A stretch of 64,000 bases of DNA from a bacterium (GCA_030641665.1 DAOWHA010000050.1:2632-66631), one strand, 5' to 3'. Positions 4,691 to 62,323 are shown, counted from the first letter of the stretch. The notes: generated by a model from the letters alone, not told the origin. Numbers and translations: made by a program.

Positions 4691-4880
4691 TGTCTTTGCG
4701 AGAAGCGAATAGAGCGATAGCGGAATGAGCGACGAAGCAATCCCATTACTGAGCGAACAAATCTGTAATTATAAATTTTTTTGCGTAAACAAAATATTGC
4801 TTTTGCATAGTTTATGCGTTATTAACGAGATTGCTTCGTCGCACCTCACTCGCTCCGCTCGTTCAACTCCTCGCAAAAAC
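4691..4880. repeat. Nested palindromic intergenic element, copy 1 (long variant, 190 bp)
   Basis: TGTCTTTGCGAGAAG...GACGAAGCAATCCCATTACTGAGCGAACAAATCTG...GATTGCTTCGTCG...CTCCTCGCAAAAACA. Ends 2 nt before the aldolase stop codon. Confidence 0.9.
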
Positions 4881-4882
4881 AA

Positions 4883-5812
4883 TTATTTTTTTAGCTCCGT
4901 CTCTCCTAAAAATATCTTATATGCTTCTTCCGCGGTATAATTATATAATACTACGGCGGAAATAGCGTTTGCCATTCTGACAGATTCATTTAATCTTCGC
5001 TGGTAAATATTCCTACCTACTGCCGCTCCTTTTGTTCCGCTGATATGAATCTGATTGTATAAACTCTGTAAGAAGCGCTTCGGATCCTTCTTGCTTCCGC
5101 CAACGCAAATTACGCCTGTCCTGCCTGCGGCAATAACAGCTTCTTTGAATTTTTTGCTTGCTTTCGCGCTCCCGTTTCGCCCATACGGATAATTTATTTT
5201 AACAAAATCCGCTCCAAGGCAGACCGCCGCGCCTGCTCCGCCCGCTATTAAATGCAAATCATTTTCATCTTTAACCGCTCTGCCGCGCGGATATATCCAG
5301 ATAACAGCTATCATCCCTTCTTTATGCGCTTCATAGATCAGGTTTGCGGCCTGATTAAACATCTCGGATTCATACCAACTCCCGATATAAATCGTATAGC
5401 CAACTCCGAGAATATTTAATTTTGCCTGTCTTTTAAATTCTATAATTTTTTCAAAGTCCAGCCAAATATTTCCAAAAGGGTCTTTTTGCTCTTTTTTTAA
5501 TAAATGCGTTTTTGAGTTAGCTTTAATCAGATAAGGGACATGGGGATAATCTCTGCCATATTTTGCGATTAAGCCGAGTTGCGCGGCAAAAACGCCAATA
5601 TGCGCCTTGCTTGCTATTTTAAAATAGTGTTCCGGATCGGCAACCTCTTTAGGGATATTCTTGGCGACAAAATCATCATTAAGATGTTCAATTTTCTGGT
5701 CGCCAGCGAACATCATCAGCCGACCTGTGCCGTTAGTGGCTAATCTAAAATTTTTTTTATATTCTTTTTCTTTGCCTTTCGGCACTGATAAAGGAATGTT
5801 TATTTTTAGCAT
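4883..5812 (-). CDS. Class I fructose-bisphosphate aldolase, DhnA/archaeal type (or related ADH synthase family)
   Basis: 309 aa. VKINYP Schiff-base lysine context and overall DhnA-family-like sequence (GADFVKINYPYG). Confidence 0.65.
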   Translation of the reverse strand: MLKINIPLSVPKGKEKEYKKNFRLATNGTGRLMMFAGDQKIEHLNDDFVAKNIPKEVADPEHYFKIASKAHIGVFAAQLGLIAKYGRDYPHVPYLIKANSKTHLLKKEQKDPFGNIWLDFEKIIEFKRQAKLNILGVGYTIYIGSWYESEMFNQAANLIYEAHKEGMIAVIWIYPRGRAVKDENDLHLIAGGAGAAVCLGADFVKINYPYGRNGSAKASKKFKEAVIAAGRTGVICVGGSKKDPKRFLQSLYNQIHISGTKGAAVGRNIYQRRLNESVRMANAISAVVLYNYTAEEAYKIFLGETELKK

Positions 5813-5879
5813 AAAAAAATAAAATTAAAAAATTAAATAATAATTGCCAAATTGGTAATTGCAAATTGCAAATTTATTT

Positions 5880-6953
5880 CTATATTGTTTCCGTTAAAGA
5901 ATACATCGGCATAATAACCGCCAGCGCCATGCCGGCAACGCCGACGCCTAAAATCAAAATTAAGACCGGCTCAATAATGGCAGGAAGATTTTTCATTGTC
6001 TGATTAACTTCTTCCTCATAAAATTCAGCCATTTCTTTTAAAACATTATCTAAACTTCCTGTCTCTTCGCCAATTGTTATCATCTCAGTTACAACGGGAG
6101 GAAATATGCGCGGATCTTTTTTAAGAGTATCTGCTATATTGATTCCTTTTGCGACTTTCTCAGATGCCTCTATGATAATCTGCTTATAAATGACATTGCC
6201 TAAAACATTTGATGTTATTTTTAAACTGTCCATTATCGGAATGTCTGTCATTAGCATAGAATGCAAAGTCCTGCAAAAACGGGATAAATTTATTTTTTTA
6301 ATAATCTTGCCAAAAATCGGCAGACGCAATAAAACTATATGAAAATATAGCTTGCCTTTTTTTGTCCTTATTGCGGCAAAAAATCCAGATATCAATATTA
6401 TAATGACAGATGGCGTTAAAATTTTATGCGCAACGGCAAAGTCGCTGATTCCTATTAAAATTCTTGTCGGCAACGGCAATTCAACGCCTGAAGCTTGAAA
6501 AATCTCCGTTATTTTGGGAATAATAAAAATAATCATCAACCCTCCTATGCCTATCATCGCTAAAACAATTATTATCGGATAAATCATCGCGCCCCTAACC
6601 TTAGAGCGTATTTCATAATCCTTTTTTGTTTGGATAAAAAGTTGCTCTAAAGCGTCTTCAAGTTTTCCGCTAACTTCCCCTGCTTGAATTATATTGATAA
6701 AAAGTTCGCCGAATATTTTTTTGTATTTTTTCAAACTTTCCGCAAAACCGTTGCCTTTTTCAATACTATTCTTTAAATCCGTTAAAATCAGTTGAAACTT
6801 TTTATTGCCGCTCTGTAAAGAAAGTGTTGATAAAGCCCTTGCTAATGGCACTCCAGCCCTCATCATCACCCGAAGATGCTGAATAAAAAACAACTTTTCC
6901 GATAAAGGAATTCTTTGGAAACGAGTTATATAATTATTTAGAGATTGCAACAT
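5880..6953 (-). CDS. pilC: Type IV pilus assembly platform protein PilC (GspF family)
   Basis: 357 aa with duplicated GspF-domain architecture and three TM regions. Lies immediately downstream of pilB. Confidence 0.85.
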   Translation of the reverse strand: MLQSLNNYITRFQRIPLSEKLFFIQHLRVMMRAGVPLARALSTLSLQSGNKKFQLILTDLKNSIEKGNGFAESLKKYKKIFGELFINIIQAGEVSGKLEDALEQLFIQTKKDYEIRSKVRGAMIYPIIIVLAMIGIGGLMIIFIIPKITEIFQASGVELPLPTRILIGISDFAVAHKILTPSVIIILISGFFAAIRTKKGKLYFHIVLLRLPIFGKIIKKINLSRFCRTLHSMLMTDIPIMDSLKITSNVLGNVIYKQIIIEASEKVAKGINIADTLKKDPRIFPPVVTEMITIGEETGSLDNVLKEMAEFYEEEVNQTMKNLPAIIEPVLILILGVGVAGMALAVIMPMYSLTETI

Positions 6954-6960
6954 AAATAAA

Positions 6961-10486: not shown

Positions 10487-10487
10487 T

Positions 10488-11376: not shown

Positions 11377-11419
11377 AGAACCTATTCGCAAAGACAAATT
11401 GAATAGGTTCTATTTTTTT
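11377..11419 (+). terminator. Rho-independent terminator after recO
   Basis: agaacctattc...gaataggttct stem plus tattttttt. The loop contains cgcaaagacaa, the same 11-mer as the repeat terminus. Confidence 0.6.
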
Positions 11420-11433: not shown

Positions 11434-12573
11434 ATGTTGAAATATTTTATTAAAACCTACGGCTGCCAGATGAACGAAAGCGATTCGGAAAGAATATCTG
11501 CCACGCTGGAAAATATCAGATATAAAAAAACAGATAATTTTAAAAAGGCTGATTTGATAATTTTTAATATGTGTGCGGTTCGGCAGACAGCAGTTGACCG
11601 CGTTCATGGGCAGTTAAAAAACATAAAAAAATTAAAGGTTGAAAACAAAAGACTGAAAATTTTTTTGACAGGATGTATTTTAGATTGCGATAAAAAAAAA
11701 CTGTCTGAAAAAGTTGATCTTATTTTTGATATTAGAGATCTTGAATCACTTTATCTTTGCGATGAGTTGAGCAACCTCTCCGCTCACTCGCTACACTCAT
11801 TTAACTCCTCGCAAAGACAAGATAAAAAAAATGACTATAATTATCTGAAAATCAAGCCGAAATATGAATATAAAAAATCCGCGCTTATTCCAATTATGAC
11901 TGGCTGCGATAATTTCTGCTCTTATTGCGCGGTGCCTTATACGCGCGGAAAGGAATACTCGCGCCCCGCAGATGATATTTTAAATGAAGTTAAAAATTTA
12001 ATTAAAAATGGATGCGAAAAAATTACTCTATTAGGACAAAATGTGAATAGTTATCGGATGTCGGACGTCAGATGTCGGATGTCAAAAATTTCAAATTTTT
12101 CGAATTTATTAAAATTAATTAACAATATAAAAGGCGAATTTGAAATTAATTTTTTAACAAGCCATCCAAAAGATATGAGTGATAAATTAATTCAGGCAAT
12201 CGCTGAGTGTAAAAAAGTGTCAAAAAACTTGCATCTGCCTTTTCAATCTGGAAGCGACGCAATATTAAAAAAAATGAACAGAAAATATACTCGACAAGAT
12301 TATCTGAATTTAGTTAAAAAAATAAAGACTGCAATTCCTGAAATAAAATTTTCAACAGATGTTATTGTCGGCTTTCCCGGAGAAACAAAAAAACAGTTTG
12401 AAGAAACTGTTAGCGTAATAAAAAAAGTAAATTTTGAAACAATTTATGTAAATAAATATTCTGCGCGAAAAGGAACGCTTGCCGAAAAACTTTACAAAGA
12501 TAATGTTAGTTTAAAAGAAAAAAAATCGCGATGGAGAATAATTAATAATTTTAATAAAAAGTTAAAGAGATAA
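11434..12573 (+). CDS. MiaB/RimO-family radical-SAM methylthiotransferase
   Basis: MTTase N-domain YGCQMNESDSE and radical SAM CDNFCSYC. Adjacent miaA favours MiaB. Carries an in-frame heptamer-repeat insertion YRMSDVRCRMS. Confidence 0.75.
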   Translation: MLKYFIKTYGCQMNESDSERISATLENIRYKKTDNFKKADLIIFNMCAVRQTAVDRVHGQLKNIKKLKVENKRLKIFLTGCILDCDKKKLSEKVDLIFDIRDLESLYLCDELSNLSAHSLHSFNSSQRQDKKNDYNYLKIKPKYEYKKSALIPIMTGCDNFCSYCAVPYTRGKEYSRPADDILNEVKNLIKNGCEKITLLGQNVNSYRMSDVRCRMSKISNFSNLLKLINNIKGEFEINFLTSHPKDMSDKLIQAIAECKKVSKNLHLPFQSGSDAILKKMNRKYTRQDYLNLVKKIKTAIPEIKFSTDVIVGFPGETKKQFEETVSVIKKVNFETIYVNKYSARKGTLAEKLYKDNVSLKEKKSRWRIINNFNKKLKR

Positions 12574-18444: not shown

Positions 18445-18608
18445 AATAATTAAAATGTTAAAAAAATAAAAACTCCCCTTTATTAAAAAGGGAGCAATAA
18501 TGTCTTATCTGCAAAAGCGAACTGCGTCTCTGCTGTAGATAAAATACTATCTTAAAACTAATAGTAATATAGCACGCTATAAAAAATTTTCAAGAGTAAA
18601 CTTCCCGC

Positions 18609-18798
18609 TGTCTTTACGAGGAATGTAGTGGAGCGATAGCTGAACGAAATGACGAAGCAATCTCATTGCTTAAGCAGAAAGAACTGTAATTACAAATTTG
18701 TTAGCTTAGTAATGAGATTGCTTCGTCGCTCTCTCTTCCCCGCCTAAATTTTTGTTTCACAAAAACTTAGGCGGGTCGTTCGGCTCCTCGCAAAGACA
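18609..18798. repeat. Nested palindromic element, copy 2 (with extra internal hairpin)
   Basis: TGTCTTTACGAGGAA...GACGAAGCAATCTCATTGCTTAAGCAG...GATTGCTTCGTCG...cgcctaa...ttaggcg...CTCCTCGCAAAGACA. Confidence 0.9.
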
Positions 18799-19424: not shown

Positions 19425-19565
19425 TGTCTTTGCGAGGAGGCGATAGCCGACGAAGCAATCCTATTACTAAACGAAAAATCTCTACTTTGCATAGTTTATG
19501 CGGATATTAACGAGATTGCTTCGTCGCTCTCTCTCGCTATGCTCATTCGGCTCCTCGCAAAGACA
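19425..19565. repeat. Nested palindromic element, copy 3
   Basis: TGTCTTTGCGAGGAGGCGATAGCCGACGAAGCAATCCTATTACT...GATTGCTTCGTCG...CTCCTCGCAAAGACA. Confidence 0.9.
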
Positions 19566-22303: not shown

Positions 22304-22444
22304 TGTCTTTGCGAGGAGGCGATAGCCGACGAAGCAATCTCATTACTGAGCGAATAAATCTATAATTATAACTTTTTTGCGTAATTAACGAGATTGCTTC
22401 GTCGCGCCTCTCTCGCTTCGCTCATTCAGCTCCTCGCAAAGACA
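22304..22444. repeat. Nested palindromic element, copy 4
   Basis: TGTCTTTGCGAGGAGGCGATAGCCGACGAAGCAATCTCATTACTGAGCGAATAAATCT...GATTGCTTCGTCG...CTCCTCGCAAAGACA. Confidence 0.9.
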
Positions 22445-23468: not shown

Positions 23469-23623
23469 TGTCTTTGCGAGGAGCCGAGCGAGTGAAACGA
23501 GCGAAGTGCGACGAAGCAATCCCATTACTAAGCGAATAAATCTCTTTTGTATAGTTTATGCGAATATTAACGAAATTGCTTCGTCGCTCTCTCGCTATGC
23601 TCGTTCGGCTCCTAGCAAAGACA
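23469..23623. repeat. Nested palindromic element, copy 5
   Basis: TGTCTTTGCGAGGAGCCGAGCGAGTGAAACGAGCGAAGTGCGACGAAGCAATCCCATTACTAAGCGAATAAATCT...ATTGCTTCGTCG...CTCCTAGCAAAGACA. Confidence 0.9.
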
Positions 23624-25472: not shown

Positions 25473-25611
25473 TGTCTTTGCGAGAAGGCGATAGCCGACG
25501 AAGCAATCCCATTGCTAAGCGAAAAAAATTATAAACACAGATTTGTTCGTTCAGTAATGGGATTGCTTCGTCGCTCTCTCTCGCTATGCTCGCTCGGCTC
25601 CTCGCAAAGAC
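25473..25611. repeat. Nested palindromic element, copy 6 (core in flipped orientation)
   Basis: TGTCTTTGCGAGAAGGCGATAGCCGACGAAGCAATCCCATTGCT...CAGATTTGTTCGTTCAGTAATGGGATTGCTTCGTCG...CTCCTCGCAAAGACA. Confidence 0.9.
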
Positions 25612-25624
25612 AAGGTAATTAAAT

Positions 25625-26025: not shown

Positions 26026-26075
26026 TAAAAATAATCCTAAAATGTCTTAATAAAAAAAATTTCTCTCTTCTGGTT

Positions 26076-26214
26076 GTCTTTGCGAGAAGCGAATGGAGCG
26101 ATAGCAAAATGAGCGACGAAGCAATCCCATTACTGAACGAACAAATCTGTGATTACAAATCTCTTTGCGTAAACAACGAGATTGCTTCGTCGGCTATCGC
26201 CTCCTCGCAAAGAC
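26076..26214. repeat. Nested palindromic element, copy 7
   Basis: TGTCTTTGCGAGAAGCGAATGGAGCGATAGCAAAATGAGCGACGAAGCAATCCCATTACTGAACGAACAAATCTG...GATTGCTTCGTCGGCTATCGCCTCCTCGCAAAGACA. Confidence 0.9.
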
Positions 26215-26222
26215 AATGGTGT

Positions 26223-27149: not shown

Positions 27150-27291
27150 TGTCTTTGCGAGCGGAGTGCAACGGAGCGAAGCAATCTCATTACTGAGCAA
27201 AAAAAACTATAATCATAACTCCTTCTGCTTAGTAATGGGATTGCTTCGTCATTTCGTTTCGCTATCTCTCCACTTCATTCCTCGCAAAGAC
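27150..27291. repeat. Nested palindromic element, copy 8
   Basis: TGTCTTTGCGAGCGGAGTGCAACGGAGCGAAGCAATCTCATTACTGAGCAAAAAAAACT...AGTAATGGGATTGCTTCGTC...CATTCCTCGCAAAGACA. Confidence 0.9.
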
Positions 27292-27313
27292 AAATAGTTG
27301 ACTAATAATCTAT

Positions 27314-45013: not shown

Positions 45014-45156
45014 TGTCTTTGCGAGGAGTTGAATGAGCGCAGCGAATGAGATGCGACGAAGCAATCTTATTACTGAGCGGACAAATCTATAATCATAATT
45101 CTTTCTGCTTAAGTAATGGGATTGCTTCGCTCCGTTGCACTCCGCTCGCAAAGACA
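45014..45156. repeat. Nested palindromic element, copy 9
   Basis: TGTCTTTGCGAGGAGTTGAATGAGCGCAGCGAATGAGATGCGACGAAGCAATCTTATTACTGAGCGGACAAATCT...GTAATGGGATTGCTTCGC...CTCGCAAAGACA. Confidence 0.9.
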
Positions 45157-45203: not shown

Positions 45204-46874
45204 TTAAGGGCACGCACACCATGCTCCGTCGCAGCAACATGGTCCTAAAGTAGGAACGCCAGCGCATCCTGGTCCTTCGCTCGGATACAAGCAATTCTGA
45301 TAATTGTTTTTCACTCCTGCTGTTGCCTGGCTTTGATAAGCAGTTGCTGTTTGAAATTTAGAATGATTAATACTTGCCTGCGTCGCGCCGCCGATATCCT
45401 CAGCTGTTATCCAATACCCGACTGTTCCGCCTAAAATTCCAATATTGCTGGTATTCAGACTGCTATACATCATTATATCTGAAAACAAAATCTGAATCGG
45501 ATCTTTTAGTGTAACGCCAACTTCATTTACAAGCGGGCTAACACTAATAATTGTCGGAGATGTTAAATTAATATTATTAGTCGTGTTAAACTGCCAAATA
45601 TAATCATCAGTCGGCGACTCTTCTGATATTCCGTCATTATCGCCGTCAAAAGAATTGCTTGCCATATCAACTATGCCGTCAAAAGGGTACGCAGCTTCAG
45701 GACAAATAAGGCAGGTCGCGGCCTTAATCGTTGTGGTTATATTTGCCAATGCTGGCAGACAATAGATTGTCTCTCCGCAAGAATTCGTTCCGCAAGGTGT
45801 TCCTAAAAATTCAACTGTTCTATATTGGTTGGAAATAGACAAAAATCCTGCGACTGGCGCGCCGTCATTGACTAAAATATTTGCGTCTAATATTGACAAC
45901 GGGTCAATAGCTTCTGAAAAATGCATCTGCACAACTATATTGCGATCGTAAGTTCCGCTAGCTGCGGGCTGAACGATTTTAATATAAGGCGGCGTAACAT
46001 CCAAAAAAGTGCTTATTTCAAATGACCAATCATAACTGCCTAACGCTCCAAAAGCTGAACTTCCGTCTGATTTATTTATATTATTCGTGAGTTCAACAGT
46101 ATGCCAAATATTTTCAACAGGGCTGCCAAGCGGATTTATCGGCTTAAAGCGGAAAGTTCTGTCGTCGGCTGTTTTCGCCGCAAAAACTTCCGTAATATAA
46201 GGACCTGAAATAATTTCTCCTTGTTTGGCGATTTTTACATTAGGATTGCCACTTCCGTCTAAGACGATAGTGTCATACTCTCCAGCGTCAAACTCTCCAT
46301 TGCCGTTAATGTCAACCCAATCGCCAAAAATTGTGCTGCCATTCGTGTCGTCAATCAAAGTGCTGACTTGCATCGCTTCCTTAAAGGTAACAACGATTGA
46401 TGTGTTGCGGGCAATATTAAGCGAACCTGGCGCTGGATAAACGCTCTCAATAATTCCAGAGCCTAAGGCGCCGCCTCCGCCGCCACCACCACCGCCGCCG
46501 CCGCCAGTTGCGCCAGTTGCGCCAGTTAAACTCTTCATTATAAACTGCGTGATAGCAAAAGACGCTAAAATAATTAAAAGTCCGATCGCGCCGCTTATTA
46601 AAATCTTTTTCGCTTTTTCGATTTTCTCAGAAGCCCCTCCTGATGTCATCCAAACAAACCCTCCATATAAAATTATAACTATCGCCAATATTCCCAGAAA
46701 TCCTAAAACAATATTAATAATCGTAAAAACCATTGATTTTAATCCGCGTGTTCCCAGTCCTAAAATTGAGGAATATTCTAATCCGTAAGTTTGCGCGGAC
46801 GCGGAAACAGCAATGCTGAAAATCGCTAAAAACGCAATGGCGAATAAAATAAATTTTTGTTTTTTAAATCTCAT
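45204..46874 (-). CDS. 556-aa secreted protein, paralogous N-terminal anchor module + poly-Gly linker + Ig-like region + C-terminal Cys knot
   Basis: First ~115 aa ~85% identical to the 2096-aa protein (MRFKKQKFILFAIAFLAIFSIAVSASAQTYGLEYSSILGLGTRGLKSMVF...). Then TGATGATGGGGGGGGGGGG. C-terminus PCCCDGAWCACP. Confidence 0.8.
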   Translation of the reverse strand: MRFKKQKFILFAIAFLAIFSIAVSASAQTYGLEYSSILGLGTRGLKSMVFTIINIVLGFLGILAIVIILYGGFVWMTSGGASEKIEKAKKILISGAIGLLIILASFAITQFIMKSLTGATGATGGGGGGGGGGGGALGSGIIESVYPAPGSLNIARNTSIVVTFKEAMQVSTLIDDTNGSTIFGDWVDINGNGEFDAGEYDTIVLDGSGNPNVKIAKQGEIISGPYITEVFAAKTADDRTFRFKPINPLGSPVENIWHTVELTNNINKSDGSSAFGALGSYDWSFEISTFLDVTPPYIKIVQPAASGTYDRNIVVQMHFSEAIDPLSILDANILVNDGAPVAGFLSISNQYRTVEFLGTPCGTNSCGETIYCLPALANITTTIKAATCLICPEAAYPFDGIVDMASNSFDGDNDGISEESPTDDYIWQFNTTNNINLTSPTIISVSPLVNEVGVTLKDPIQILFSDIMMYSSLNTSNIGILGGTVGYWITAEDIGGATQASINHSKFQTATAYQSQATAGVKNNYQNCLYPSEGPGCAGVPTLGPCCCDGAWCACP

Positions 46875-46955: not shown

Positions 46956-47131
46956 TGTCTTTGCGAGGAGCGAATGGAGCGATAGCGAAATGAGTAACGA
47001 AGCAATCCCATTACTGAGCGAACAAATCTATAATTATAATTTGTCTATGCTTTTGTATAGTTTGCACGGTTAGTAATGGTATTGCTTCGTCGCGCCTCTC
47101 TCGCTTCGCTCGTTCAGCTCCTCGCAAAGAC
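46956..47131. repeat. Nested palindromic element, copy 10 (long variant)
   Basis: TGTCTTTGCGAGGAGCGAATGGAGCGATAGCGAAATGAGTAACGAAGCAATCCCATTACTGAGCGAACAAATCT...ATTGCTTCGTCGCGCCTCTCTCGCTTCGCTCGTTCAGCTCCTCGCAAAGACA. Confidence 0.9.
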
Positions 47132-47234
47132 ATCTTAATTATAAAATGTATCTAAAAAATAATTGGTAATTAAAAATTTGAAAATTTAATAATTGATTGA
47201 TAATTGCAAATTGGTAATTAAAAATTTATTTTTC

Positions 47235-50200: not shown

Positions 50201-53200
50201 CTATATTATAATAAATTCCTGTTTTTAAAATTTTAACAAATTCAGACGGAACCAAATTTCCGCTAACGCTCAAATCGCAATTAATCGCCGAATCTTTGCC
50301 AGTATAAAACCGTCCGCTAAACTGCTGATCGCTTTCATCAGAAACAATCTGCGCTCCGTTAATAGGGGTAATAATATCCATTGAGTCGTCAGGCGATATT
50401 AAATCAATCGGGTTGCCAACTAAACCGTCAACGCAATTTTCTAATATAATCGCGCTGCCGGCGCCGTTAGAATTGCTTAACACTGTATAAACGGTGTCTT
50501 GCTCTAACCGAACAGGAACATTTGTAATATAATCGCCGGCTGCAACGCTCCAACCGTCAGGAACTCCGTCAACATCGACATCTTGAGCAAAATCGCCGTT
50601 AAAAACGATATTTTTTGAAATTGAACTTATCGGATCAATATATTCCGCGCAGCCGTCAATTTCAGGCGGGCAAATCGCTGTCCAATTATTGCAATAGCCT
50701 CCCGGACAATCAGCATCAGTCTCGCAGATTCCGCCGCCTCCGCCCAGACAGGTTTTAGCCGCGTACTCAACGCCGATATCAGAATATGCCAAAGGGCAAT
50801 TCGGCGCTCCGGAAGTAGTATTAGCAAGATACCAACCAGCATCTGTCTGTCCCCCAACTAATTTATATTCACAAATTTTAGCGTCTCCCTTGATTCTCTG
50901 TGATACAGGATCTTTAAAATAAGAATCGCCCATAACATCTGAACTAAATTTTCCGCAGCCGACATTATCAAAAAGACAGAGCGTATCGTTATATTCATCA
51001 GGGTCGTTAATTTTATAAACAGTTTCATATTGATACAGATCATCTCTGTCGTCGGCAAGATTTTCAGTTGTTTTATTCATATTATACCTGTAATTTGCAG
51101 TTCCTAAAGCAGAGCATCCTTTCTCTTTTGATTTGCAAATTTTCCCCTTATCATTAACTAGCGTGTCAATTTTGTCGCCAAAAACAGTGATTTCAGATAT
51201 ATCGCCCAAATTAAATATTTCTTCTAAATAACTATGAGAATTAAATGTGTCAATCAGCGCTTCGCATCCTGCGACATCTTCGCCGCATAAGCGATTAAAT
51301 GATTTTAAATATACTGTCTGTTTTTCAACCTCGCTCTCATACTCTTCGCATCCAAGCATATATTGCGGAGCGTAAGCGCCGTTATGGTCTTGATCGCATA
51401 CTGATGAAACATTCCAAAAATCAGGTCTGATTAAAAACAGCTTGTCGCGCTCCTCTTTTAAGATAATATTGTCAATATAGGAAATGCCGCTAAAACCGCT
51501 GATTCTTAATGTTTCTAAAATATTATCGCCCGGCGCACTCATTGGATCGTCGCTGCTCATATCCCAGCCGACTAAAACAGGACCTAATGAATATTTCTGC
51601 CACTCCGGACCTAAATTAACCGAACCGCTCGCGAACTCTTCTCCTGCCGGCGCGCTGGAAAATTCAGCCGTCAGGCTTCCTGCTCCTTTTGCCCAAAAAG
51701 AGAGGAAATAAGTTTTTTGATGTCCGAGCAAAGATTTGTAAAGGCAGGTCTGTTCAGTGTTTTGCGCGTAACAGACTGTTTCATTATTAACTTCGCATTC
51801 GCATCCTTCGTCTAAAGCGCAAACAAATCCTAAATCGCAATGCGCTTTTAAGGAATAGTTCATGTCGTCGCCCAAATTGATTTTCAAACTATGCCCACCT
51901 CTAATCAGAGACTCGCTGCTAAGAGCTCCGACCCCACAATTATTAACCGCCTGTTCAAATCCGTCGTCAATAACCTTGCGGATATTATTGCTTGTGTTTC
52001 CCCTATATTCATAACAATCGTTTTTTGACGCGGGGCAAACAATCCCTTGCTCGGACAAAGCTTCATAAATGCATTCGTTGTTAGCGCTCCATTCGCCCCA
52101 ATCCCAACTGCCGGCAGAATGGACAACGCAGTCTGCCTGTGATGATTTTGTCTTGCGGTAAGGATGGCAGTCATCAGAGCAACTAACTGTATTTTTATAA
52201 TGCCGATAAGAGATAATATTTGCTTCGCTGTAAAATTCATTGCATTCCGGATTTCTGATCGCGTCGTCATAATTATTACAGTCTCCAAAAATATCAGCGG
52301 CGTCGGCTATATTATATATATTGTCAGGATAGCCGTTGCTATCAGCGTCTAACAGCATATGAGCGACAAGCTGGAATCCTGTCTCTTCTGAGCCGATCCA
52401 TGTGTAAAACGACGCGCAATCACCGTTAATTCCATGGCATGGCCGCAGATAAGAAAAATATTCAATCGCTTCGCCGCCTTCTTCTAATTTGTCTAAATTC
52501 GTAAATTCAGAGCATCCCGCGTATTGCGCCGAGCATTTTTCCTCGTTGTTCGGAATTAAAAACTCTGGAAATTTTTCGCTCTCAAAAAAAGTCGCTTCCT
52601 GCTTGTAGGCGTTATAGCCGTTGCAAGTCTCGGGGCAAAAATCATCAGACCGAACCACTCCCGGAATGCTCGGATCGCCATTCGTTGGTTCGTATAAATC
52701 GCATCCGACATCGTCTGGTCGGCATTCTAATGCAAAGTTAGCGCATTGCTCGGATCCGCCTTCCGCGCATCGCTCAATATCCGTTCGCCAAAAATGCCCT
52801 GCTGTTTCACATCCTGACTGATCGTCAAAAGCATCGTTATATACGGTATATAATTCGCAATTATAATAATCAGGAGCTTTTTTTAAATAGAGCGAATTGC
52901 TGTTATGATAATCTTCATAACTAAACAGATATCCGTCTCCAGCTACTTCTTCTAATTGGACAGAATCAATTAAGCACCCAAGCGGAATTCCTCCTGCCGC
53001 GCCGCTCACGCTGATTGTCAATTCCGTGTCAAAAGCGTCAATTGTTCCGTCGGTTGGAAAAGTGTAATTAACATTAAACCGCTCCCAGTCATCGTTGTTG
53101 CCAGATATTAATTCAATCGGCGATCCTGCTATGGCTGGAATATAGAATTGAAAATTAGTTCCGACACAATTTTGCGCGTAAAAAGAAAAACTGAACTTTC

Positions 53201-55874
53201 TGCCTTCTAAATTATATCCTGTGTCAATAACTTTTGTCAGATTAGCCGCTGCGCCGTTTAAAGACCTAAAAGCTGTGGCGCCGATAAAACTCGCGCTGGT
53301 TGCTTCTCCTGCCGCGGACGCCCATTCTATAAAAGTATCGGCTATGCTGTCATCAATAATGTCTGTTTCTAAAATATCAGTAAAACTTGAGTTAGTAATC
53401 AGATTAGTCCCCAAATTCGGCTTTGTCCTAATATACTCGCGGCACCCCTCGCTGGAACTGGAACAAATTTCCGCTTTTTTGTTTAGATAAATGTCATTAT
53501 TAACATTAGGAACAAGCTCTTGATTTATCGTAAGCCGCGCTTTTGATCCGTCTAAAACGCATTCTATCCCTTTATGCGGAACAACGCACGATTCAATAAT
53601 GTCGCCGTCTTGGTCAATATCATTTACATCCGCAATTTCGCATCCGTCTGCATTGGCGCAATAATTATCTAAATTCAAATCCCACCCTTGGCTTAAGCAA
53701 GCCCAAGCGTCGTCCCCCGCGTTTCTTGAAGCGCAATGCCATTCGCATCCGGCGCTGTCTTCACTGCATCCGCCGTACTCCGCAGTATTTTTCAGATAAA
53801 AAACTTCGTTTCCTTTCGGAGACGCGAAAGACTGGCAAGTATTATAATAACTGTCGCATTCATCTCCTTGAAAATCCCAAACGCGCTTCTCCTCTGAACA
53901 GTATCCGTAAAAAAGGCAATTTCCTTTTGCATCTTCTTTTAAGCAAGACTGTTCGTCGGCGCAATATCCGTCTCTCATAATATTAACGCGCGGCTTCTGG
54001 TCATACTCGTCGTCAAAGTCGCCATCGCTGTCAATGTCAATTCCTTGTGAAACTTCTTCGCTGATTATCTTCTCTCCTATTCCTTCAAGTTCGCAAAAAA
54101 GTTCCGGCGCTTTCAGCACCCAGCTCGGATCAATCAGTTTATAAAAAGGCGAGGCAGGATCGTCAAACCCGCTTATTACTTCCTGAATATTATAAATCCT
54201 GAAATCAGAGGTTTGATTGCCAATATGCCTTGCGGCTAATTCCCAGCCGACCGGGATTATTCTGTATTTTCTTAAAATTACCAAATTTCTATAAGAGTAT
54301 CCTTGATTATACAGCGGCTCAATATCTTTTGAAGTAAATCCGAACGGAAAATTGCCGCTTATATATCCTTGATTAAGAGCTTCCTGAACCGTAAGTTCCT
54401 GCTGGACAGCGTCGGCGAACTGCTGCGTAATTACGCATTCTGTCGGTCCGGCGTTTTCAGGATCAGGGCACATTAACAATTTTGACAAAATTGAATAAGC
54501 TCCGCCTGTTTTATAATCCGGCTGAAAAATTTTTGAATATTTCGCTTTGGCGGCTTTAGCGCCCTGGCTGACCCTGGCTGCGGATATTCTGCTTGCCGAA
54601 CTGTCAACACCGCTCAGCCAGTTATAATCTGAATCTTCGTCATCTCCGCGCAGTTTAGCCATCCCTTCCATCACCCATTTGTTGATCAACTTGCTCATTA
54701 AAGTATTAGCGAAAGTCGCGACTGCGTCGGCTATAATGTCGCCCGTGAAAACTTCTTCAAACTTCGTCCCTTCGTCAATCGGCTTGGTTCCCATTTTATA
54801 GACCACATTACCAGGCGTTAAAATATTTCCTGCGGCATCTGTGATAGCTTTCCAGCCGCCGCCCTCTTTCCGCGCTTTTTCAGCAGTATCAATTCCAGCC
54901 TTTCTTTTTTCTAAAAAATCACTATGCATTGTTAAAGCGATTCCGATGTCGTTCTCTTCCGGATTCCAATATCCTTGAAAGCGAGTTAAAAAATCAGGAT
55001 CGTTCACAAACTCATCCCAATTTCGCGAAGCGCGGCTGTATGTGCACTTCGGCTTTTTCGGCCTCTGTATTTCAGCTAAATCAGCTGTTAATCTCATCTT
55101 AACATTAAAATCCGGCTCGCATAAAAATTGCACTATGGATCCTGCCGCCCCCTTGCTATATCTTGAGCCAGCAGATCCAGCGGTAGGACCGCCAAAATCT
55201 TTCTTACTTAAATCATCTGTCTGTTTTTCGTAAATTTCAAGGCATTTAATCGAATGATCTCCTTCGCATACGCTCCAACAATTCTCAATGATCATTTTTT
55301 CTGAATTTGGCAAAAGATTAAAATTGTCTGGTATTTCTCCGCACTTTTTTTCACATCCGCTAACAAAATCTTTCGAGCATTCTATAAAATCATCGTTAGT
55401 TTTTGAATAAGCATCTTCTTCTGAGGAATGCCTGTCCCACTGGCTCGCCGCTGCCATAATAGCTGTTCCTGCGGCTTCATCAGCCGCGTCCAGCATATAT
55501 TCCTCCCAATTAGAAGTAAAAATCATCGGCTTCTGACCCTTGTCTCCGCTCGCTACCCAAGTCGCGCTTTCTAAAGCTAAATTGCGCAAAAAATTATGCA
55601 GCGCTGCCTTAAAGCCAACCGCCGCCCAATGCTTGCCGAGTTTCTCTTCTGCTACTTCCCATTTTTCCCAAGCCCATTTTAACGCATCGCTTACTCTTGA
55701 CCATATATTTGATAATGTATTTGGGATAGAAGAGACATCAGTCGTTACTTCAACGGGAATCGCCCGAGCGTTTTTTACTATCAATAAATTAAATCCTACT
55801 GAATGAAAAATAAACAGAAACAGAATCATTAAAATAACTAATCTGTTTTTTTTCTTTTTTGTTTTGTTAAACAT
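47235..55874 (-). CDS. Giant (2879 aa) secreted Cys-rich protein with scattered Ca-binding DxDxDG loops (hypothetical surface protein)
   Basis: Signal-anchor KKKKNRLVILMILFLFIFHSVGF...ARA. About 5% Cys throughout. Loops DIDSDGDFDDE and DIDQDGDIIE. Continuous ORF uninterrupted on minus strand. No catalytic motif seen. Confidence 0.8.
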   Translation of the reverse strand: MFNKTKKKKNRLVILMILFLFIFHSVGFNLLIVKNARAIPVEVTTDVSSIPNTLSNIWSRVSDALKWAWEKWEVAEEKLGKHWAAVGFKAALHNFLRNLALESATWVASGDKGQKPMIFTSNWEEYMLDAADEAAGTAIMAAASQWDRHSSEEDAYSKTNDDFIECSKDFVSGCEKKCGEIPDNFNLLPNSEKMIIENCWSVCEGDHSIKCLEIYEKQTDDLSKKDFGGPTAGSAGSRYSKGAAGSIVQFLCEPDFNVKMRLTADLAEIQRPKKPKCTYSRASRNWDEFVNDPDFLTRFQGYWNPEENDIGIALTMHSDFLEKRKAGIDTAEKARKEGGGWKAITDAAGNILTPGNVVYKMGTKPIDEGTKFEEVFTGDIIADAVATFANTLMSKLINKWVMEGMAKLRGDDEDSDYNWLSGVDSSASRISAARVSQGAKAAKAKYSKIFQPDYKTGGAYSILSKLLMCPDPENAGPTECVITQQFADAVQQELTVQEALNQGYISGNFPFGFTSKDIEPLYNQGYSYRNLVILRKYRIIPVGWELAARHIGNQTSDFRIYNIQEVISGFDDPASPFYKLIDPSWVLKAPELFCELEGIGEKIISEEVSQGIDIDSDGDFDDEYDQKPRVNIMRDGYCADEQSCLKEDAKGNCLFYGYCSEEKRVWDFQGDECDSYYNTCQSFASPKGNEVFYLKNTAEYGGCSEDSAGCEWHCASRNAGDDAWACLSQGWDLNLDNYCANADGCEIADVNDIDQDGDIIESCVVPHKGIECVLDGSKARLTINQELVPNVNNDIYLNKKAEICSSSSEGCREYIRTKPNLGTNLITNSSFTDILETDIIDDSIADTFIEWASAAGEATSASFIGATAFRSLNGAAANLTKVIDTGYNLEGRKFSFSFYAQNCVGTNFQFYIPAIAGSPIELISGNNDDWERFNVNYTFPTDGTIDAFDTELTISVSGAAGGIPLGCLIDSVQLEEVAGDGYLFSYEDYHNSNSLYLKKAPDYYNCELYTVYNDAFDDQSGCETAGHFWRTDIERCAEGGSEQCANFALECRPDDVGCDLYEPTNGDPSIPGVVRSDDFCPETCNGYNAYKQEATFFESEKFPEFLIPNNEEKCSAQYAGCSEFTNLDKLEEGGEAIEYFSYLRPCHGINGDCASFYTWIGSEETGFQLVAHMLLDADSNGYPDNIYNIADAADIFGDCNNYDDAIRNPECNEFYSEANIISYRHYKNTVSCSDDCHPYRKTKSSQADCVVHSAGSWDWGEWSANNECIYEALSEQGIVCPASKNDCYEYRGNTSNNIRKVIDDGFEQAVNNCGVGALSSESLIRGGHSLKINLGDDMNYSLKAHCDLGFVCALDEGCECEVNNETVCYAQNTEQTCLYKSLLGHQKTYFLSFWAKGAGSLTAEFSSAPAGEEFASGSVNLGPEWQKYSLGPVLVGWDMSSDDPMSAPGDNILETLRISGFSGISYIDNIILKEERDKLFLIRPDFWNVSSVCDQDHNGAYAPQYMLGCEEYESEVEKQTVYLKSFNRLCGEDVAGCEALIDTFNSHSYLEEIFNLGDISEITVFGDKIDTLVNDKGKICKSKEKGCSALGTANYRYNMNKTTENLADDRDDLYQYETVYKINDPDEYNDTLCLFDNVGCGKFSSDVMGDSYFKDPVSQRIKGDAKICEYKLVGGQTDAGWYLANTTSGAPNCPLAYSDIGVEYAAKTCLGGGGGICETDADCPGGYCNNWTAICPPEIDGCAEYIDPISSISKNIVFNGDFAQDVDVDGVPDGWSVAAGDYITNVPVRLEQDTVYTVLSNSNGAGSAIILENCVDGLVGNPIDLISPDDSMDIITPINGAQIVSDESDQQFSGRFYTGKDSAINCDLSVSGNLVPSEFVKILKTGIYYNIDSSIDKAECNGLVDYEKGCVLFNRREISSGLAIEDIIYDADRNDKNINTPQSCLIGGIPDGTCDSNLLVKVKPTRTCGEWLYCKGTVNVTGKDGAIKRKCTDIGACNSMNEQGKCDGFVVSEPINQTANATVSLDDIRDRAGYTKIGKQGVAEGYYPLHTMSQESVQIKIPNNNFELIENIDYPVGWLYEGALFEDEFSVISDPVSAQGIGLEYMSPEGRSFLSVGADYAAVTETISLIGTEEGNRYFVSAWVNTLNLKASNAEIQLREMDAFGNMIRDYHSILSVPRSDYWQFKTAAFDVDLSTKRIVLRLVAPGSAPDGNFYIDEIRIKPALKIGDTDVYSPQTCRSYPKQDALSCEYFSDSGIKNIGKFGYCLEYDRFPGNPRQCLLWWPVDKLSSEGIEETGRVLGYDGKFPVFYCSDMDANFDFVENRTSEIISDLDDYCCDTNLLTAFADWMLAGLPSLIINGAYYGDLTNFLNGGCGSRMIVYNDNDAGMQTCNSTNYKVEVRIYSDGNCGAFNTDTEYNLRFTCIPKNDATHIPISGNWYIYDGDLVLNEPNPDPQVMIYDYTESRLVDPMDYRLRCDKIYQTVSHFDIGENKAWTDRVRDGTDYRTGELGSFDYYHTSEDKPFGSMIPPEGVNPIYWDGNDNTDILDPILFRENLSEGAIAGLPYGCSDGSTQGNTCDVIGRCSGHPELICAHPYPSGDWNHHDDNLLLHCPCNDAHTICETCEPISNLGNISDNNAVEILKRIFAKSYGTWEWDHASSQYRDCGIDIACVLNDWNPPDNICAGTPAARPAYSNTTGLCAGGDCFAGCGSNPAGATCDFCGVPPIVENIKVNGNISGNYNFSISNDVNLEFNSIIDYNQLPLATYWIDWGDGTDASPNISYVSNGIQDRPDEDDPHSESRQYSYYEMLLNDPSSVSIECGAAGATLFGDLSVVCGAFPCCATQPRIRLKDNWDWCNGDTTRAVCNQWEYYNGYIIASEF

Positions 55875-55969
55875 AAATATTTTAATTTTGAATTTCCAAT
55901 TTTAAATCTATTAAGTTATCATAAAAAATTCTTCTTCAATTATATCTTTGCGAGAAGTTTTTCCCTTAT

Positions 55970-56111
55970 TGTCTTTGCGAGCGGGGTGCAACGGAGCGAA
56001 GCAATCTCATTACTGAGCGGACAAATCTATAATTATAATTTGTCTATCTATATAATAGGATTGCTTCGTCGCGCCTCTCTCGCTTCGCTCGTTCAGCTCC
56101 TCGCAAAGACA
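55970..56111. repeat. Nested palindromic element, copy 11
   Basis: TGTCTTTGCGAGCGGGGTGCAACGGAGCGAAGCAATCTCATTACTGAGCGGACAAATCT...GATTGCTTCGTCGCGCCTCTCTCGCTTCGCTCGTTCAGCTCCTCGCAAAGACA. An extra 13-nt tctttgcgagaag fragment lies at 55943. Confidence 0.9.
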
Positions 56112-56194
56112 TGGTGGGAAGCAAACAAATTTTTGAAATCAAAATTTTTCTTTTTAATTAAATCTATTTTCTTTTTTCTTGAACCGCCTTTAAT

Positions 56195-56398
56195 CTATTT
56201 TTCTCTTAAAATCGCTTCTTCTATTTTATCAAAAACTTCATAGTAAACTAATTTGTCAACATTATATTTTTTAGTAAATCCTTTAATTGTTTTATTTTTA
56301 TGCTCTTTAATTCTTCTATTTAAATCATTAGTTACACCCGTATAAATAACTGTATTATTTTGATTGCAGAGTATGTATATAAAATATTGCTTTTGCAT
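56195..56398 (-). CDS. GIY-YIG nuclease-domain small protein (second paralogue)
   Basis: QYFIYILCNQNNTVIYTGVTNDLNRRIKEHKN. Flanked by repeat copy 11 and half-copy 12. Its start codon lies inside the half-copy. Confidence 0.6.
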   Translation of the reverse strand: MQKQYFIYILCNQNNTVIYTGVTNDLNRRIKEHKNKTIKGFTKKYNVDKLVYYEVFDKIEEAILREK

Positions 56399-56473
56399 AA
56401 TTTGCGCGGTTTTTAATGAGATTGCTTCGTCATTTCGTTCCGCTATCGCTCCACTTCATTTCTCGCAAAGACA
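56393..56473. repeat. Half-copy (right arm only) of the nested palindromic element, copy 12
   Basis: ttttgcataatttgcgcggtttttaatgaGATTGCTTCGTCatttcgttccgctatcgctccacttcattTCTCGCAAAGACA. Confidence 0.8.
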
Positions 56474-57825: not shown

Positions 57826-57837
57826 AAAATTATATTG

Positions 57838-57893
57838 TCACCCTGAATTCCGTCCAAAGGATGGTCAGCCTCTGGACGGAATTCAGGATGACA
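57838..57893. repeat. Perfect 18-bp-stem hairpin, second repeat family (ggatggtcagcctc loop)
   Basis: caccctgaattccgtcca-aaggatggtcagcctc-tggacggaattcagggtg. A degenerate relative lies at 15424-15485 (ctgaattccgtccagaggatggtcagcctctggctgatatttcaggg). Confidence 0.7.
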
Positions 57894-60530: not shown

Positions 60531-60899
60531 ATGAAACAAAATACATTTCTTATAGCGCTAAAATATATATCTGTTGATCTGATTGGAGATATTTTATTGT
60601 TCCCTTTGTGGTGGTATACAAAAGGATTAAAAAAAACAGTTGCTTTTTGTGCGCAAAAAGCAAAAAACGCGGAAAACGCGCTCGGTATTAAAATCTGGCT
60701 CACAAGCCTATTTAAGCCTATGTACGCTCAATACGACTGGCAAGGAAGAATTATAAGTTTTTTTATGCGAATTTTCCAAATAATCTTCCGCTCTGTTTTA
60801 TTTGCTGTCTCTCTAATTTTCATATTTATCTTACCTATAATTTGGGTAGCGCTTCCGATATTTATTGTTTTTCAAATTGTCTTAATCGCAACAATTTAA
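60531..60899 (+). CDS. Hypothetical membrane protein
   Basis: 122 aa, N- and C-terminal TM helices. No motif. Confidence 0.4.
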   Translation: MKQNTFLIALKYISVDLIGDILLFPLWWYTKGLKKTVAFCAQKAKNAENALGIKIWLTSLFKPMYAQYDWQGRIISFFMRIFQIIFRSVLFAVSLIFIFILPIIWVALPIFIVFQIVLIATI

Positions 60900-60900
60900 T

Positions 60901-62103
60901 TTAATCTTTTTTGTATTTTTTAATCAAATAATCGCGATTATCCCAAAAAAGTTTTGCTTGATTAACAATCTTTTTTTCGCAAATTTCAGACGATTTGTCT
61001 AATGTTGCTTTAAAAAAACTGATAAAACGACCAAAATACAGCGGTTTTAACGCTTCTACAATGTTATCCCCTAAATCTGTCTTATCATAAGCATAAATAG
61101 CGTCATATAAAATCTTGCACCACAATTCATCACTGATATTTATATCTTTTTTATTATACATTTTTTTAACTTTTTTAAAAACATCTTTGCTTAACACGGC
61201 GGCTAAAATATCCTCGCTTTCCTGAAAATTTAAAAGCGCCGTTTTTTTAATATTTTTATAATCAACATTTAATGTCTGCGGGGGCATCATAATATCACTG
61301 CCAAAATATGGAATATTCTTTTTGCTGCTGGCATTAAGCCATATTTTTCTATTTTCTTTTATAATTTCAAAAAGAGTGATTACGACTTGCGAAAACATAG
61401 AACTTAATTTCGGCGCGCTAGGCTTATGAATCTTGGCTCCCAATCCTGCTTGCGCGATTTTAAATCCTCCTAAAATCGCGTTCATTGTCATAAAAATATC
61501 AATCCCGTATTGATAGACAGTTTTATGCCATCGCTGTTTAAGCCAATATTCTAATAACTTAGACGAGAAAGAAAAATCTCCGCCGATCGGCTGCCTGATA
61601 TTATATCCAAATAATCCATAGATTAAAGGGTAGCAAATATTATTAGTGATTGTTCCGTCATATTCGCATCTTGAATAAAAAGGCGTTGCGTAATCAATGC
61701 CTTGCAATATTGGCGTTATCAGCCATTTAATCCATTCGGGTGATATGCTTTTTAAATCAGCGTCAACGACGACTATCGCCTGCGTTTTTAAATTTTTCGC
61801 GAATTTAAACAGATTATAAAAACCGTTGCCCTTGCCGGGCAGATTCGGCGGAGTGGAAATATATATTTTAGCGGTTTTCGTCTTGGCGCTTAAAAAAGCG
61901 CCTTTTGTGTTGTCCGGAGAGTTATGATCAACATTAATAATAACAGCTTTATATTGCTTGAAATATTTAGTTAGTCCTTTATCAATCTGTTCCGCGACAA
62001 AAAAAATATTGTCCGCTTCATTATACGACGGAATGCCAACAACTAAATCCGCCTGTTTTACTTTGCTTTTATTTATTATAATGTTTTCGCTTGTATTTAA
62101 CAT
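60901..62103 (-). CDS. GT-A fold glycosyltransferase (family 2-like) with C-terminal extension
   Basis: VGIPSYNEADNI N-terminal motif and VVDADL (DxD). 400 aa. Confidence 0.55.
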   Translation of the reverse strand: MLNTSENIIINKSKVKQADLVVGIPSYNEADNIFFVAEQIDKGLTKYFKQYKAVIINVDHNSPDNTKGAFLSAKTKTAKIYISTPPNLPGKGNGFYNLFKFAKNLKTQAIVVVDADLKSISPEWIKWLITPILQGIDYATPFYSRCEYDGTITNNICYPLIYGLFGYNIRQPIGGDFSFSSKLLEYWLKQRWHKTVYQYGIDIFMTMNAILGGFKIAQAGLGAKIHKPSAPKLSSMFSQVVITLFEIIKENRKIWLNASSKKNIPYFGSDIMMPPQTLNVDYKNIKKTALLNFQESEDILAAVLSKDVFKKVKKMYNKKDINISDELWCKILYDAIYAYDKTDLGDNIVEALKPLYFGRFISFFKATLDKSSEICEKKIVNQAKLFWDNRDYLIKKYKKD

Positions 62104-62164
62104 ATTTTCTGTAAATTACTAAAATATATAAATTACACTGTCCTTTTGAATAGTTTTCTCTTGT

Positions 62165-62323
62165 TGTCTTTGCAAGGAGCCGAACGAACGCAGTGAGAAA
62201 GAGCGACGAAGCAATCTCGTTACTGAGCGAACAAATCTATGATTATAAATCTTTTTGCGTAAGTAATGAGATTGCTTCGTCATTTCGTTCCGCTATCGCT
62301 CCGCTTCATTCCTCGCAAAGACA
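62165..62323. repeat. Nested palindromic element, copy 13; overlaps the 3' end of the downstream gene
   Basis: TGTCTTTGCAAGGAGCCGAACGAACGCAGTGAGAAAGAGCGACGAAGCAATCTCGTTACTGAGCGAACAAATCT...GATTGCTTCGTC...CATTCCTCGCAAAGACA. Confidence 0.9.

Follow-up and report, generated by a model that had tools for sequence, protein, structure and literature searches.

What are the long palindromes that recur between the genes of a bacterial contig, and from what did they arise? An earlier note on a 64,000-nt stretch of a metagenome-assembled genome of the Patescibacteria (candidate phyla radiation, CPR; GCA_030641665.1, DAOWHA010000050.1:2632-66631; G+C ~35%), referred to here as the window and always meant at its full length, had described a dense family of such elements, each with nested outer and inner arms. 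The family is real and far above chance: the 15-nt outer arm TGTCTTTGCGAGGAG matched 29 times in the window at up to two mismatches compared to 0.08 expected, the 12-nt inner arm GACGAAGCAATC 22 times compared to 0.27, and a 22-nt "core" nine times compared to 0. Twelve full palindromes were extracted, at the positions first given for them except that one copy starts at 26075 and not at 26076; a 68-bp copy consisting of arms only (11752-11819) and two solo outer arms (11382-11396 and 55943-55957) are added to that list. All 12 full copies folded, on either strand, into the single long imperfect hairpin that had been proposed (minimum free energy -52 to -88 kcal/mol; z-scores -4 to -19, from only 10 shuffles per copy). 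Below we argue that these palindromes are gene-deleted derivatives, similar to miniature inverted-repeat transposable elements (MITEs), of a cassette in which a GIY-YIG nuclease gene of the recently described Ssn family lies between two hairpin repeats termed SRM. We put the probability of this identity, as SRM-(delta)ssn-SRM units, at roughly 0.8.

A nuclease gene between the arms and its relics within the palindromes

We clustered the open reading frames (ORFs) lying within 2.5 kb of arms at 111 loci. No recurrent transposase was found among them, and the only recurrent neighbour was a 95-102-aa protein encoded directly between the arms at four loci from three phyla, which consists of a GIY-YIG domain (E 1e-15 to 1e-17); the loci with a GIY-YIG ORF between arms belong to Patescibacteria, Dehalococcoidia and Anaerolineales. 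When the arm-flanked proteins were compared with the window by tblastn, a homologue was recovered at 56123-56398 on the minus strand (58% identity to a Dehalococcoidia copy, E 3e-29), exactly between the copy at 55970-56111 and a "half copy" of the palindrome listed earlier at 56393-56473. The latter is in fact the upstream arm and leader of this gene. The window gene is a pseudogene: the conserved REKQIKGGSR reads REK*IKGGSR owing to an in-frame TAG, which leaves a 67-aa ORF, and its 3' end runs into the adjoining doublet, so that its own stop and arm are not reached; its alignment to the family covers residues 1-92. Intact relatives are 93-102 aa long, with PF01541 as the sole domain, and are thus single-domain proteins of about 94 residues. 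A protein search in a set of 5.8 billion proteins gave at least ~8,000 clusters at 90% identity, in which cross-phylum members are 55-83% identical and the best match to the window protein among those listed reaches 75%. NCBIfam holds no specific model for this nuclease family. An AlphaFold2 model (pLDDT 91) had UPF0213 (cd10456), Slx1 and the UvrC N-terminal domain as its nearest folds. Among solved chains, the UPF0213 proteins 1zg2 and 1ywl came nearest to the family, at E-values of only 4e-9 and 2e-5.

The association was also examined from the protein side, in 80 metagenome loci chosen by peptide patterns and hence independently of the arms. An outer arm was present at most 160 nt upstream of the gene in 58 of 73 loci and at most 200 nt downstream in 75 of 80 loci, and inner arms were present in 56 of 73 and 51 of 80. 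Arms and GIY-YIG gene form one unit and, by the upstream and downstream counts, the repeat stands on both sides of the gene as it does for SRM and their Neisseria counterpart NTS.

Both ends of this nuclease gene are retained inside the palindromes. On the gene strand, the copy at 4691-4881 consists of the 5' arm, the leader, ATG CAA AAG CAA TAT TTT GTT TAC ... GAT TTG TTC GCT CAG TAA and the 3' arm, and in its mini-ORF MQKQYFVY, from the start of the nuclease ORF, is fused in frame with DLFAQ*, from the end of that ORF. Leader and first codons are retained in the copies at 19425, 23469 and 46956; the copies at 22304, 26075 and 62165 have a larger deletion with an identical junction at three different loci, and four copies carry the 3' relic on both sides, tail to tail. 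Because the first and last codons of the nuclease gene are kept within them, the palindromes are best explained as internal-deletion derivatives: as in a MITE, their terminal inverted repeats are common to the gene-bearing parent and their interior is the parent minus a deletion. The "core" pointed out in the earlier note is a genuine repeated sequence, but it represents the 3' end of the nuclease gene (the reverse complement of its last codons and stop), and what had been taken for shuffled modules reflects variation in the central section of the arm. Likewise, a "MITE/REP-like" family (REP, repetitive extragenic palindrome) was an apt suggestion in that the copies derive, with loss of the gene, from a larger unit that has inverted ends, are patchy in close relatives and share deletion junctions, but it overlooked the associated GIY-YIG/Ssn gene relic in the window and the distribution across phyla. 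All eight copies with an asymmetric interior, as well as the nuclease gene relic itself, point in the same direction as the flanking genes, and gene-bearing units from metagenomes were co-oriented with their upstream neighbour in 44 of 54 cases and with their downstream neighbour in 47 of 58; transcription and replication direction are inseparable in these data.

Read on its purine-rich strand, the arm runs YGTC, A-TTGC, GAG(GAG), tip hairpin, CGA(CGA)A, GCAA-T, CTC, and folds into a YGTC tag, a 5-bp stem (ATTGC/GCAAT), a GA-rich internal loop and a variable tip hairpin. The N4 and N4' segments were perfectly complementary in 408 of 486 arms, and two-sided compensatory stem variants were observed seven times compared to 0.5 expected. 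Variants of the TTGC/GCAA stem were TCGC/GCGA, CCGC/GCGG, CTGC/GCAG, TTAC/GTAA, TTCC/GGAA and TTCT/AGAA, and sister families had the stems ATCCT/AGGAT, ATTCT/AGAAT, ATGCT/AGCAT and ATGTT/AACAT. The tip is free in sequence, with 341 distinct middle segments in 409 arms, and is enriched in hairpins (21% at p<=0.01 versus shuffles, under an energy model that ignores G.A pairs); its shortest version contains GCGAAGC, which we take to be the very stable GNA-triloop DNA mini-hairpin. In some elements (L155 and L131) the 5' and 3' arms are of different stem types, each arm being self-complementary; what is conserved is accordingly how each arm folds by itself and not the pairing between arms. Conservation ends at position -1, where 79% of arms have T and 17% have C, and the flank outside is G-poor. 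In its layout the arm agrees with an SRM, in which an oriented 5' tag (H)GTCW precedes a hairpin with complementary closing segments and then a C: position -1 is mostly T or C, and GTC[A/T] comes next.

Relation to the Ssn/SRM system

The Ssn family was first described in 2025 (Chenal et al., Nat Commun; PMC11893778) as 94-aa proteins with a single GIY-YIG domain (cd10448), the genes of which are flanked by hairpin repeats, named NTS (dRS3/NTS) in Neisseria (CGTCATTCCCGCGMAVGCGGGAATCYRG) and generically SRM, with copy numbers in the hundreds. Binding of SsnA to the hairpin requires single-stranded DNA (ssDNA) and one particular orientation, its cut falls a few nucleotides upstream of the hairpin, and it is inactive on double-stranded DNA (dsDNA) and on RNA, which it does not bind (PMC11893778). 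In Neisseria meningitidis, NTS/SsnA lowers the integration of NTS-gene-NTS DNA, NTS cluster around particular genes, and the authors remark that NTS-ssnA-NTS resembles an insertion sequence (IS) (PMC11893778). The window system agrees with this description in having a ~94-aa GIY-YIG gene flanked on both sides by hairpin repeats of the form YGTCA-N4-(hairpin)-N4'-TC, the NTS motif CGTCATTCCCGCG..GCGGGAATC having the same architecture as the window arms, and in that the repeats are dispersed, numerous, mostly intergenic and directional and the family extends across phyla. A 94-aa gene of N. gonorrhoeae that lies among 16 NTS copies in 2.7 kb aligned with the restored window relic over the full length at 44% identity (E 2e-25) and matched the family profile (A3) at 99.8% in hhalign; tblastn of the family protein P0100 to this gene gave E 1e-21, where the published homology threshold to SsnA is E<1e-10 (PMC11893778). 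The two systems differ in their stems (TTGC/GCAA here, TTCC/GGAA in NTS) and in the GA-rich internal loop and free-sequence tip hairpin found here. Furthermore, the tags here face outward and the arms pair into one long palindrome, whereas the nearest tags at the Neisseria gene face inward, and the dispersed copies here are doublets with gene relics in a CPR host.

The system is therefore a variety of the recently described Ssn/SRM and not a new kind of element. What is new is an arm class missed by the published SRM pattern, doublets that carry gene relics, and spread inside the ATP-synthase operon of a CPR bacterium. PMC11893778 describes no relic-bearing doublets, MITE-like forms or pseudogenes; literature searches with raw arm sequence strings returned only primers, those on GIY-YIG with MITEs, inverted repeats or REP and on COG2827 gave nothing relevant, and the arms are not in Di Nocera's paper on CGTC-tagged REP. 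As the published pattern misses this arm class, the system is probably much more widespread than published counts suggest: with these arms it is found in Chloroflexota, Omnitrophota, Patescibacteria and others, the published description coming mainly from Neisseria. The relic-bearing doublets offer direct sequence evidence that internal deletion of gene-bearing cassettes gives rise to the dispersed SRM repeats, which then multiply without the gene. This bears on the question of whether NTS-ssnA-NTS is, or was, mobile. Each arm variant could, in addition, be the site recognised by a new site-specific ssDNA nuclease.

Several observations weigh against this reading of the palindromes. The published pattern HGTCWYN(0-2)YYVSBRHN(0-5)WNVSBRGN(0-2)RNCYNB had no match in the window on either strand; canonical A- and B-type arms fail it (A-type being the class of the window arms), and NTS matches. 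We presume that the N. gonorrhoeae gene is the ssnA orthologue on the strength of its length and of the NTS around it, an accession having played no part. The gene in the window itself is defunct, and the closest intact homologue listed for it has only 75% identity; since this pseudogene is the only family member in the window, any activity would have to come from an intact copy encoded at another place in the genome. We compared the flanks of 228 complete elements from many genomes, 173 of gene-less and 55 of gene-bearing size, and saw no excess of target-site duplications (offsets 0-3, k=1-8), a single 8-bp direct flank repeat being found at locus L049. This agrees with the absence of duplications reported earlier for the window, and any target motif is limited to the G-poor 5' flank. 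A nucleotide-exact empty site was not recovered in relatives, the flanks of which are too diverged, and we therefore infer movement rather than see it. Finally, going by the properties of the published enzyme, one strand would carry only one cleavable arm; such an enzyme would cut a strand at one end only, and peel-and-paste excision of the IS200/IS605 kind does not follow.

Spread, turnover and possible origins

We scanned DNA from one genome per species for the half-element TGTCTTTGCGAG-N11-41-GACGAAGCAATC and found it at at least 111 loci in many phyla, the hosts being Chloroflexota, Cloacimonadota, Omnitrophota, Bacteroidota (including an isolate, Maribacter ulvicola), Nitrospinota, Ignavibacteriota, Proteobacteria and several CPR groups. 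The CRISPR-like pattern of regular direct repeats with unique spacers, which the earlier note had not seen, is indeed absent, the copies being inverted doublets separated by whole genes. Most of the 8-kb loci carried a single arm only, which identifies the half-element, and not the palindrome, as the conserved unit. The half-element was also present in at least 120 IMG/VR contigs, and blastn of one copy against phage records gave no match. A-type arms occur in predicted viral contigs of IMG/VR (loci L200-L279), at times several per contig; viral contigs would be a route for spread across phyla, if they are truly viral rather than host flanks. Contigs with the nuclease gene often end at or near repeats (L001-L003 and many short contigs) and mostly measure no more than 0.5-3 kb, as would be expected if the repeats break short-read assemblies of metagenomes. 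The arms are presumably also the source of many spurious short ORFs in metagenome-assembled genomes.

Occupied sites differ among close relatives. In the window, one F-type ATP-synthase operon on the minus strand has seven copies between its genes, and we compared this operon with those of relatives of 94%, 83% and 80% atpG identity, in which the orthologous spacers measure only 9-34 nt. The 94% relative (L195) had no intact A-type copy in the operon, an 8-nt remnant at atpB-atpE and sister-type palindromes (TGTCATTCTGAA.../...TTCAGAATGACA) at two other junctions. The 83% relative (L196) had one copy, at the same atpB-atpE junction as 27150-27292 and wholly inverted, and the 80% relative had none, with spacers down to 9-10 nt. 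The 68-bp copy inside an ORF occupies a variable linker of the MiaB-like protein and has no counterpart in orthologues that are 77-80% identical. A sister arm class (TGTCAYCCTGA...TCAGGATGACA, with the stem ATCCT/AGGAT or ATTCT/AGAAT) forms doublets of its own, as at 57836-57893 in the window. In relatives, sister-class doublets were located at the atpF-atpH and atpG 3' junctions of L195 and after atpC in L198, junctions that A-type copies hold in the window, and sister arms flank other GIY-YIG genes at the metagenome loci L155, L131 and L118.

How might such a unit spread? By analogy with the characterised homologues (PMC11893778), the purine-strand arm would fold when DNA becomes single-stranded, and the Ssn nuclease would bind the folded arm in one orientation only and nick a few nucleotides 5' of the tag; as the tags face outward, the cut would fall just outside each element end. 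Nicks together with host replication or repair may then copy the unit to new sites with no target-site duplication, and insertions may survive mainly just downstream of stop codons, these two being the weakest steps of the scheme. The repeats may in addition make incoming ssDNA a substrate of the nuclease, as in Neisseria. We propose only tentatively, and as something we would not bet on, that the SRM-ssn-SRM cassette actively transposes and represents a class of element that has yet to be recognised in prokaryotes, in which the nuclease nicks outside the ends while the host copies the unit or the gene-less doublets. If this were true, the window doublets would be the MITEs of the cassette, caught proliferating inside an essential operon of a minimal genome, and the "IS-like architecture" remark of the 2025 Ssn paper would become a demonstrated mechanism of mobility.

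The repeats could instead be domesticated parts of a system kept by the host, as proposed for Neisseria, with the doublets making incoming or exposed ssDNA cleavable and thereby modulating natural transformation and recombination in a bacterium reliant on the uptake of DNA. The effect of NTS/SsnA on integration of NTS-gene-NTS and the clustering of NTS (PMC11893778) speak for such a system, as do the DprA and the PilB-type ATPase encoded in the window and the bracketing of every ATP-operon gene by the seven doublets. However, occupancy is not conserved even at 94% atpG identity, the copies show decay (remnants, solo arms and the dead gene), one and the same junction can hold different sister arm types in different relatives, and one copy lies inside an ORF; we consider this account possible but doubtful. 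A host role in the control of incoming ssDNA is nevertheless plausible, and a selfish origin would be compatible with it.

The earlier note had further suggested a processed structural RNA family or modular terminators. Selection of the hairpins as RNA elements, be it as terminators, RNase III or other processing sites or 3'-end stabilisers, would make the link to the nuclease incidental, and it would fit elements that lie mostly 1-47 nt past stop codons and farther from the next start, that form very stable RNA hairpins with the gene strand favoured by ~40 kcal/mol summed over the 12 copies, and the gene-bearing units of which are co-oriented with their neighbours. Against this, none of the seven elements in 18-28 kb was called terminator-like on the minus, that is the gene, strand, by a scan that detects loops of 3-8 nt only and to which long hairpins are invisible as such, and their tails lack a consistent T-run; separate native terminator-like hairpins adjoin two of the seven. 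Rfam searches of the window and of gene-bearing loci, at gathering and permissive thresholds, returned only tRNAs and generic miRNA-hairpin matches far below gathering scores, whereas different phyla have conserved the exact sequence of the arms along with a DNA nuclease gene. Moreover, the conserved intra-arm fold is on the purine strand of both DNA strands, where it is invisible to a single transcript, and SsnA does not bind RNA (PMC11893778). An origin as RNA elements is thus unlikely, while effects of the seven hairpins on ATP-operon mRNA are possible.

Still less probable is that ssn is a free-standing homing endonuclease gene that invaded older palindromes serving as its landing pads. 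Classic homing endonucleases do exist among GIY-YIG enzymes, the gene is always central in the palindrome, between the inner arms, and the arms would provide homology for repair; but the gene-less copies hold the start and stop codons and leader of the gene itself, with nested deletion junctions, which indicates gene loss and not virgin targets, and the characterised homologue does not cut dsDNA. An ordinary DDE-transposon MITE (TGT...ACA ends), or a REP doublet forming a hairpin (REPIN) that is mobilised by a REP-associated tyrosine transposase (RAYT) or an IS200/IS605 HUH transposase, would account for 15-bp terminal inverted repeats starting with TGT, for REPIN-like doublet hairpins and for the high local density, but it is scarcely credible given the lack of target-site duplications in 228 elements and of a recurrent transposase within 2.5 kb at 111 loci, with GIY-YIG as the sole recurrent neighbour and the relic codons inside the copies being GIY-YIG codons.

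The RAYT, IS200 or TnpB partner that the earlier note had suggested is accordingly not the associated gene, GIY-YIG being the only gene recurrently flanked. REP/REPIN-RAYT systems and bacterial interspersed mosaic elements (BIMEs) also consist of 5'-tagged hairpin repeats in inverted doublets, which are numerous, intergenic and free of target-site duplications, with a nuclease gene flanked by the same repeats. The partner here, however, is GIY-YIG and not HUH Y1, REPINs hold no relic of the RAYT gene, and RAYT systems are mostly inherited vertically whereas the arm sequence here is common to several phyla. IS200/IS605 elements and palindrome-associated transposable elements (PATEs) share ends recognised as folded ssDNA hairpins, the lack of target-site duplications, gene-less derivatives and an orientation bias relative to genes or replication. 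In IS200/IS605, both recognised hairpins are on one strand, there are no terminal inverted repeats, and the target is a defined tetranucleotide; here, the recognisable strands of the two arms lie on opposite DNA strands. Classical MITEs such as the Correia elements of Neisseria are similar in size (100-200 bp), in their terminal inverted repeats, in being internal deletions of a larger unit and in their location near genes and within operons, but the elements here lack target-site duplications and their parent encodes no DDE transposase. Compared by form, the Rickettsia palindromic elements (RPE) are likewise palindromes of a reduced genome that can sit in frame in genes, as does the copy at 11752-11819, whereas only one of ~14 loci here lies in a gene; Rickettsia is listed among the SRM-rich genera (PMC11893778).

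Sites of the copies and neighbouring features

The copies and their sites are listed in Table 1. Every copy had been held to be intergenic and to abut a stop codon within a few nucleotides. Two copies depart from the first statement, the one at 11752-11819, which is in frame inside a MiaB-like ORF, and the one at 62165-62323, which provides a riboflavin-kinase-like ORF with its end. The second statement holds loosely: from the stop of the upstream gene to the copy we measured -18, 1, 7, 12, 19, 21, 23, 38, 47, 102 and 191 nt. One arm of the copy at 18609-18798 bears an extra 37-nt tip hairpin (CCCGCCTAA...TTAGGCGGG).

Table 1. Palindromic copies, solo arms and the nuclease gene relic in the window (positions counted from its first nucleotide; a point in the strand column marks rows given no strand)
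Feature	Position	Strand	Remarks
Least-deleted gene-less doublet	4691..4881	-	5' arm, leader, 20-codon mini-ORF MQKQYFVYAKKFIITDLFAQ*, 3' arm
Solo outer arm, 2 mismatches, in the recO-miaB spacer	11382..11396	-	arm search
68-bp arms-only copy, translated in frame as YLCDELSNLSAHSLHSFNSSQRQ	11752..11819	.	inter-domain linker of MiaB-like methylthiotransferase ORF 11434-12573
Doublet with tail-to-tail interior, between atpC and the Na+/H+ exchanger leader	18609..18798	.	
Doublet keeping leader and ATGCAAA, between NYN gene and atpC	19425..19565	-	
Doublet with larger interior deletion, 23 nt past the atpG stop	22304..22444	-	junction common to 26075 and 62165
Doublet between atpA and atpG	23469..23623	-	
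Doublet with tail-to-tail interior (3' gene relic on both sides), between atpH and atpA	25473..25612	.	
Doublet between atpF and atpH	26075..26215	-	
Doublet between atpB and atpE	27150..27292	.	
Doublet between two giant genes with pilin domains	45014..45156	.	
Doublet keeping ATACAAAAG (mutated ATG, then Q, K) and 3' relic	46956..47132	-	
Solo outer arm, 12 nt ahead of the next copy	55943..55957	+	
Doublet abutting and truncating the 3' end of the nuclease gene relic	55970..56111	-	
Ssn-family GIY-YIG nuclease gene relic	56123..56398	-	homology; in-frame TAG; native stop and downstream arm missing
Leader and upstream arm of the gene relic (earlier "half copy")	56399..56473	-	
Doublet, outer arm forming the last 5 codons and stop (CLCEE*) of a riboflavin-kinase-like ORF	62165..62323	-	

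The window also encodes giant proteins with T4SS-pilin N-termini. Three consecutive large ORFs on the minus strand (38669-44959, 45204-46874 and 47235-55874; 2096, 556 and 2879 aa), with doublets between them, have a G+C content of ~41-45%, markedly above the rest of the window; two of them have T4SS-pilin-like N-termini and Big_5/TIG domains, and the largest is without a Pfam match. The Na+/H+ exchanger gene (-) is preceded by a leader at 18497-18551, conserved also in L195 and L198, with a terminator-like hairpin after it at 18472-18495; this leader had no Rfam match and is a riboswitch-like candidate.

A second GIY-YIG ORF, of 86 aa and intact, is present at 31152-31412 (-) between tRNA-Ser(GCT) and a partial duplicate of that tRNA. 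We rejected it as an autonomous copy of the nuclease gene: it is without arms, its alignment to the Ssn-like profile is confined to residues 2-68, and the 94% relative has it in synteny (L195 1809-2069). It may represent a resident nuclease, or cargo carried by an insertion that targets tRNA genes. Nearby, the same 40-nt two-hairpin insert (CCCCGATATCCATCGGGG CGCCACGGCGGATGCCGTGGCG) is found at 31457-31496 and 31735-31774, where it interrupts the T-arm region of tRNA-like sequences at 31440-31545 and 31727-31843 (-), beside intact tRNA-Ser genes. One of these insert-bearing sequences scored just over the Rfam tRNA threshold (30.4 bits), and the first hairpin of the insert resembles the CCCGAT...ATCGGG tip hairpins of arms from other phyla (L040, L015, L012 and L034).

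Related inverted repeats of ~22-26 nt (TCCGAAATCTGATATCTGAAAT type) form three pairs, at 62808-62829/62920-62941, 63406-63431/63533-63558 and 31914-31935/31967-31988. No tRNA was called between the members of the third pair (31914-31988), and the first two bracket the genes for tRNA-Ile GAT and tRNA-Ile UAU, as if they were processing stems. The tRNA-Ile with anticodon UAU (63435-63508, minus strand, 77.8 bits) represents an uncommon bacterial way of reading AUA.

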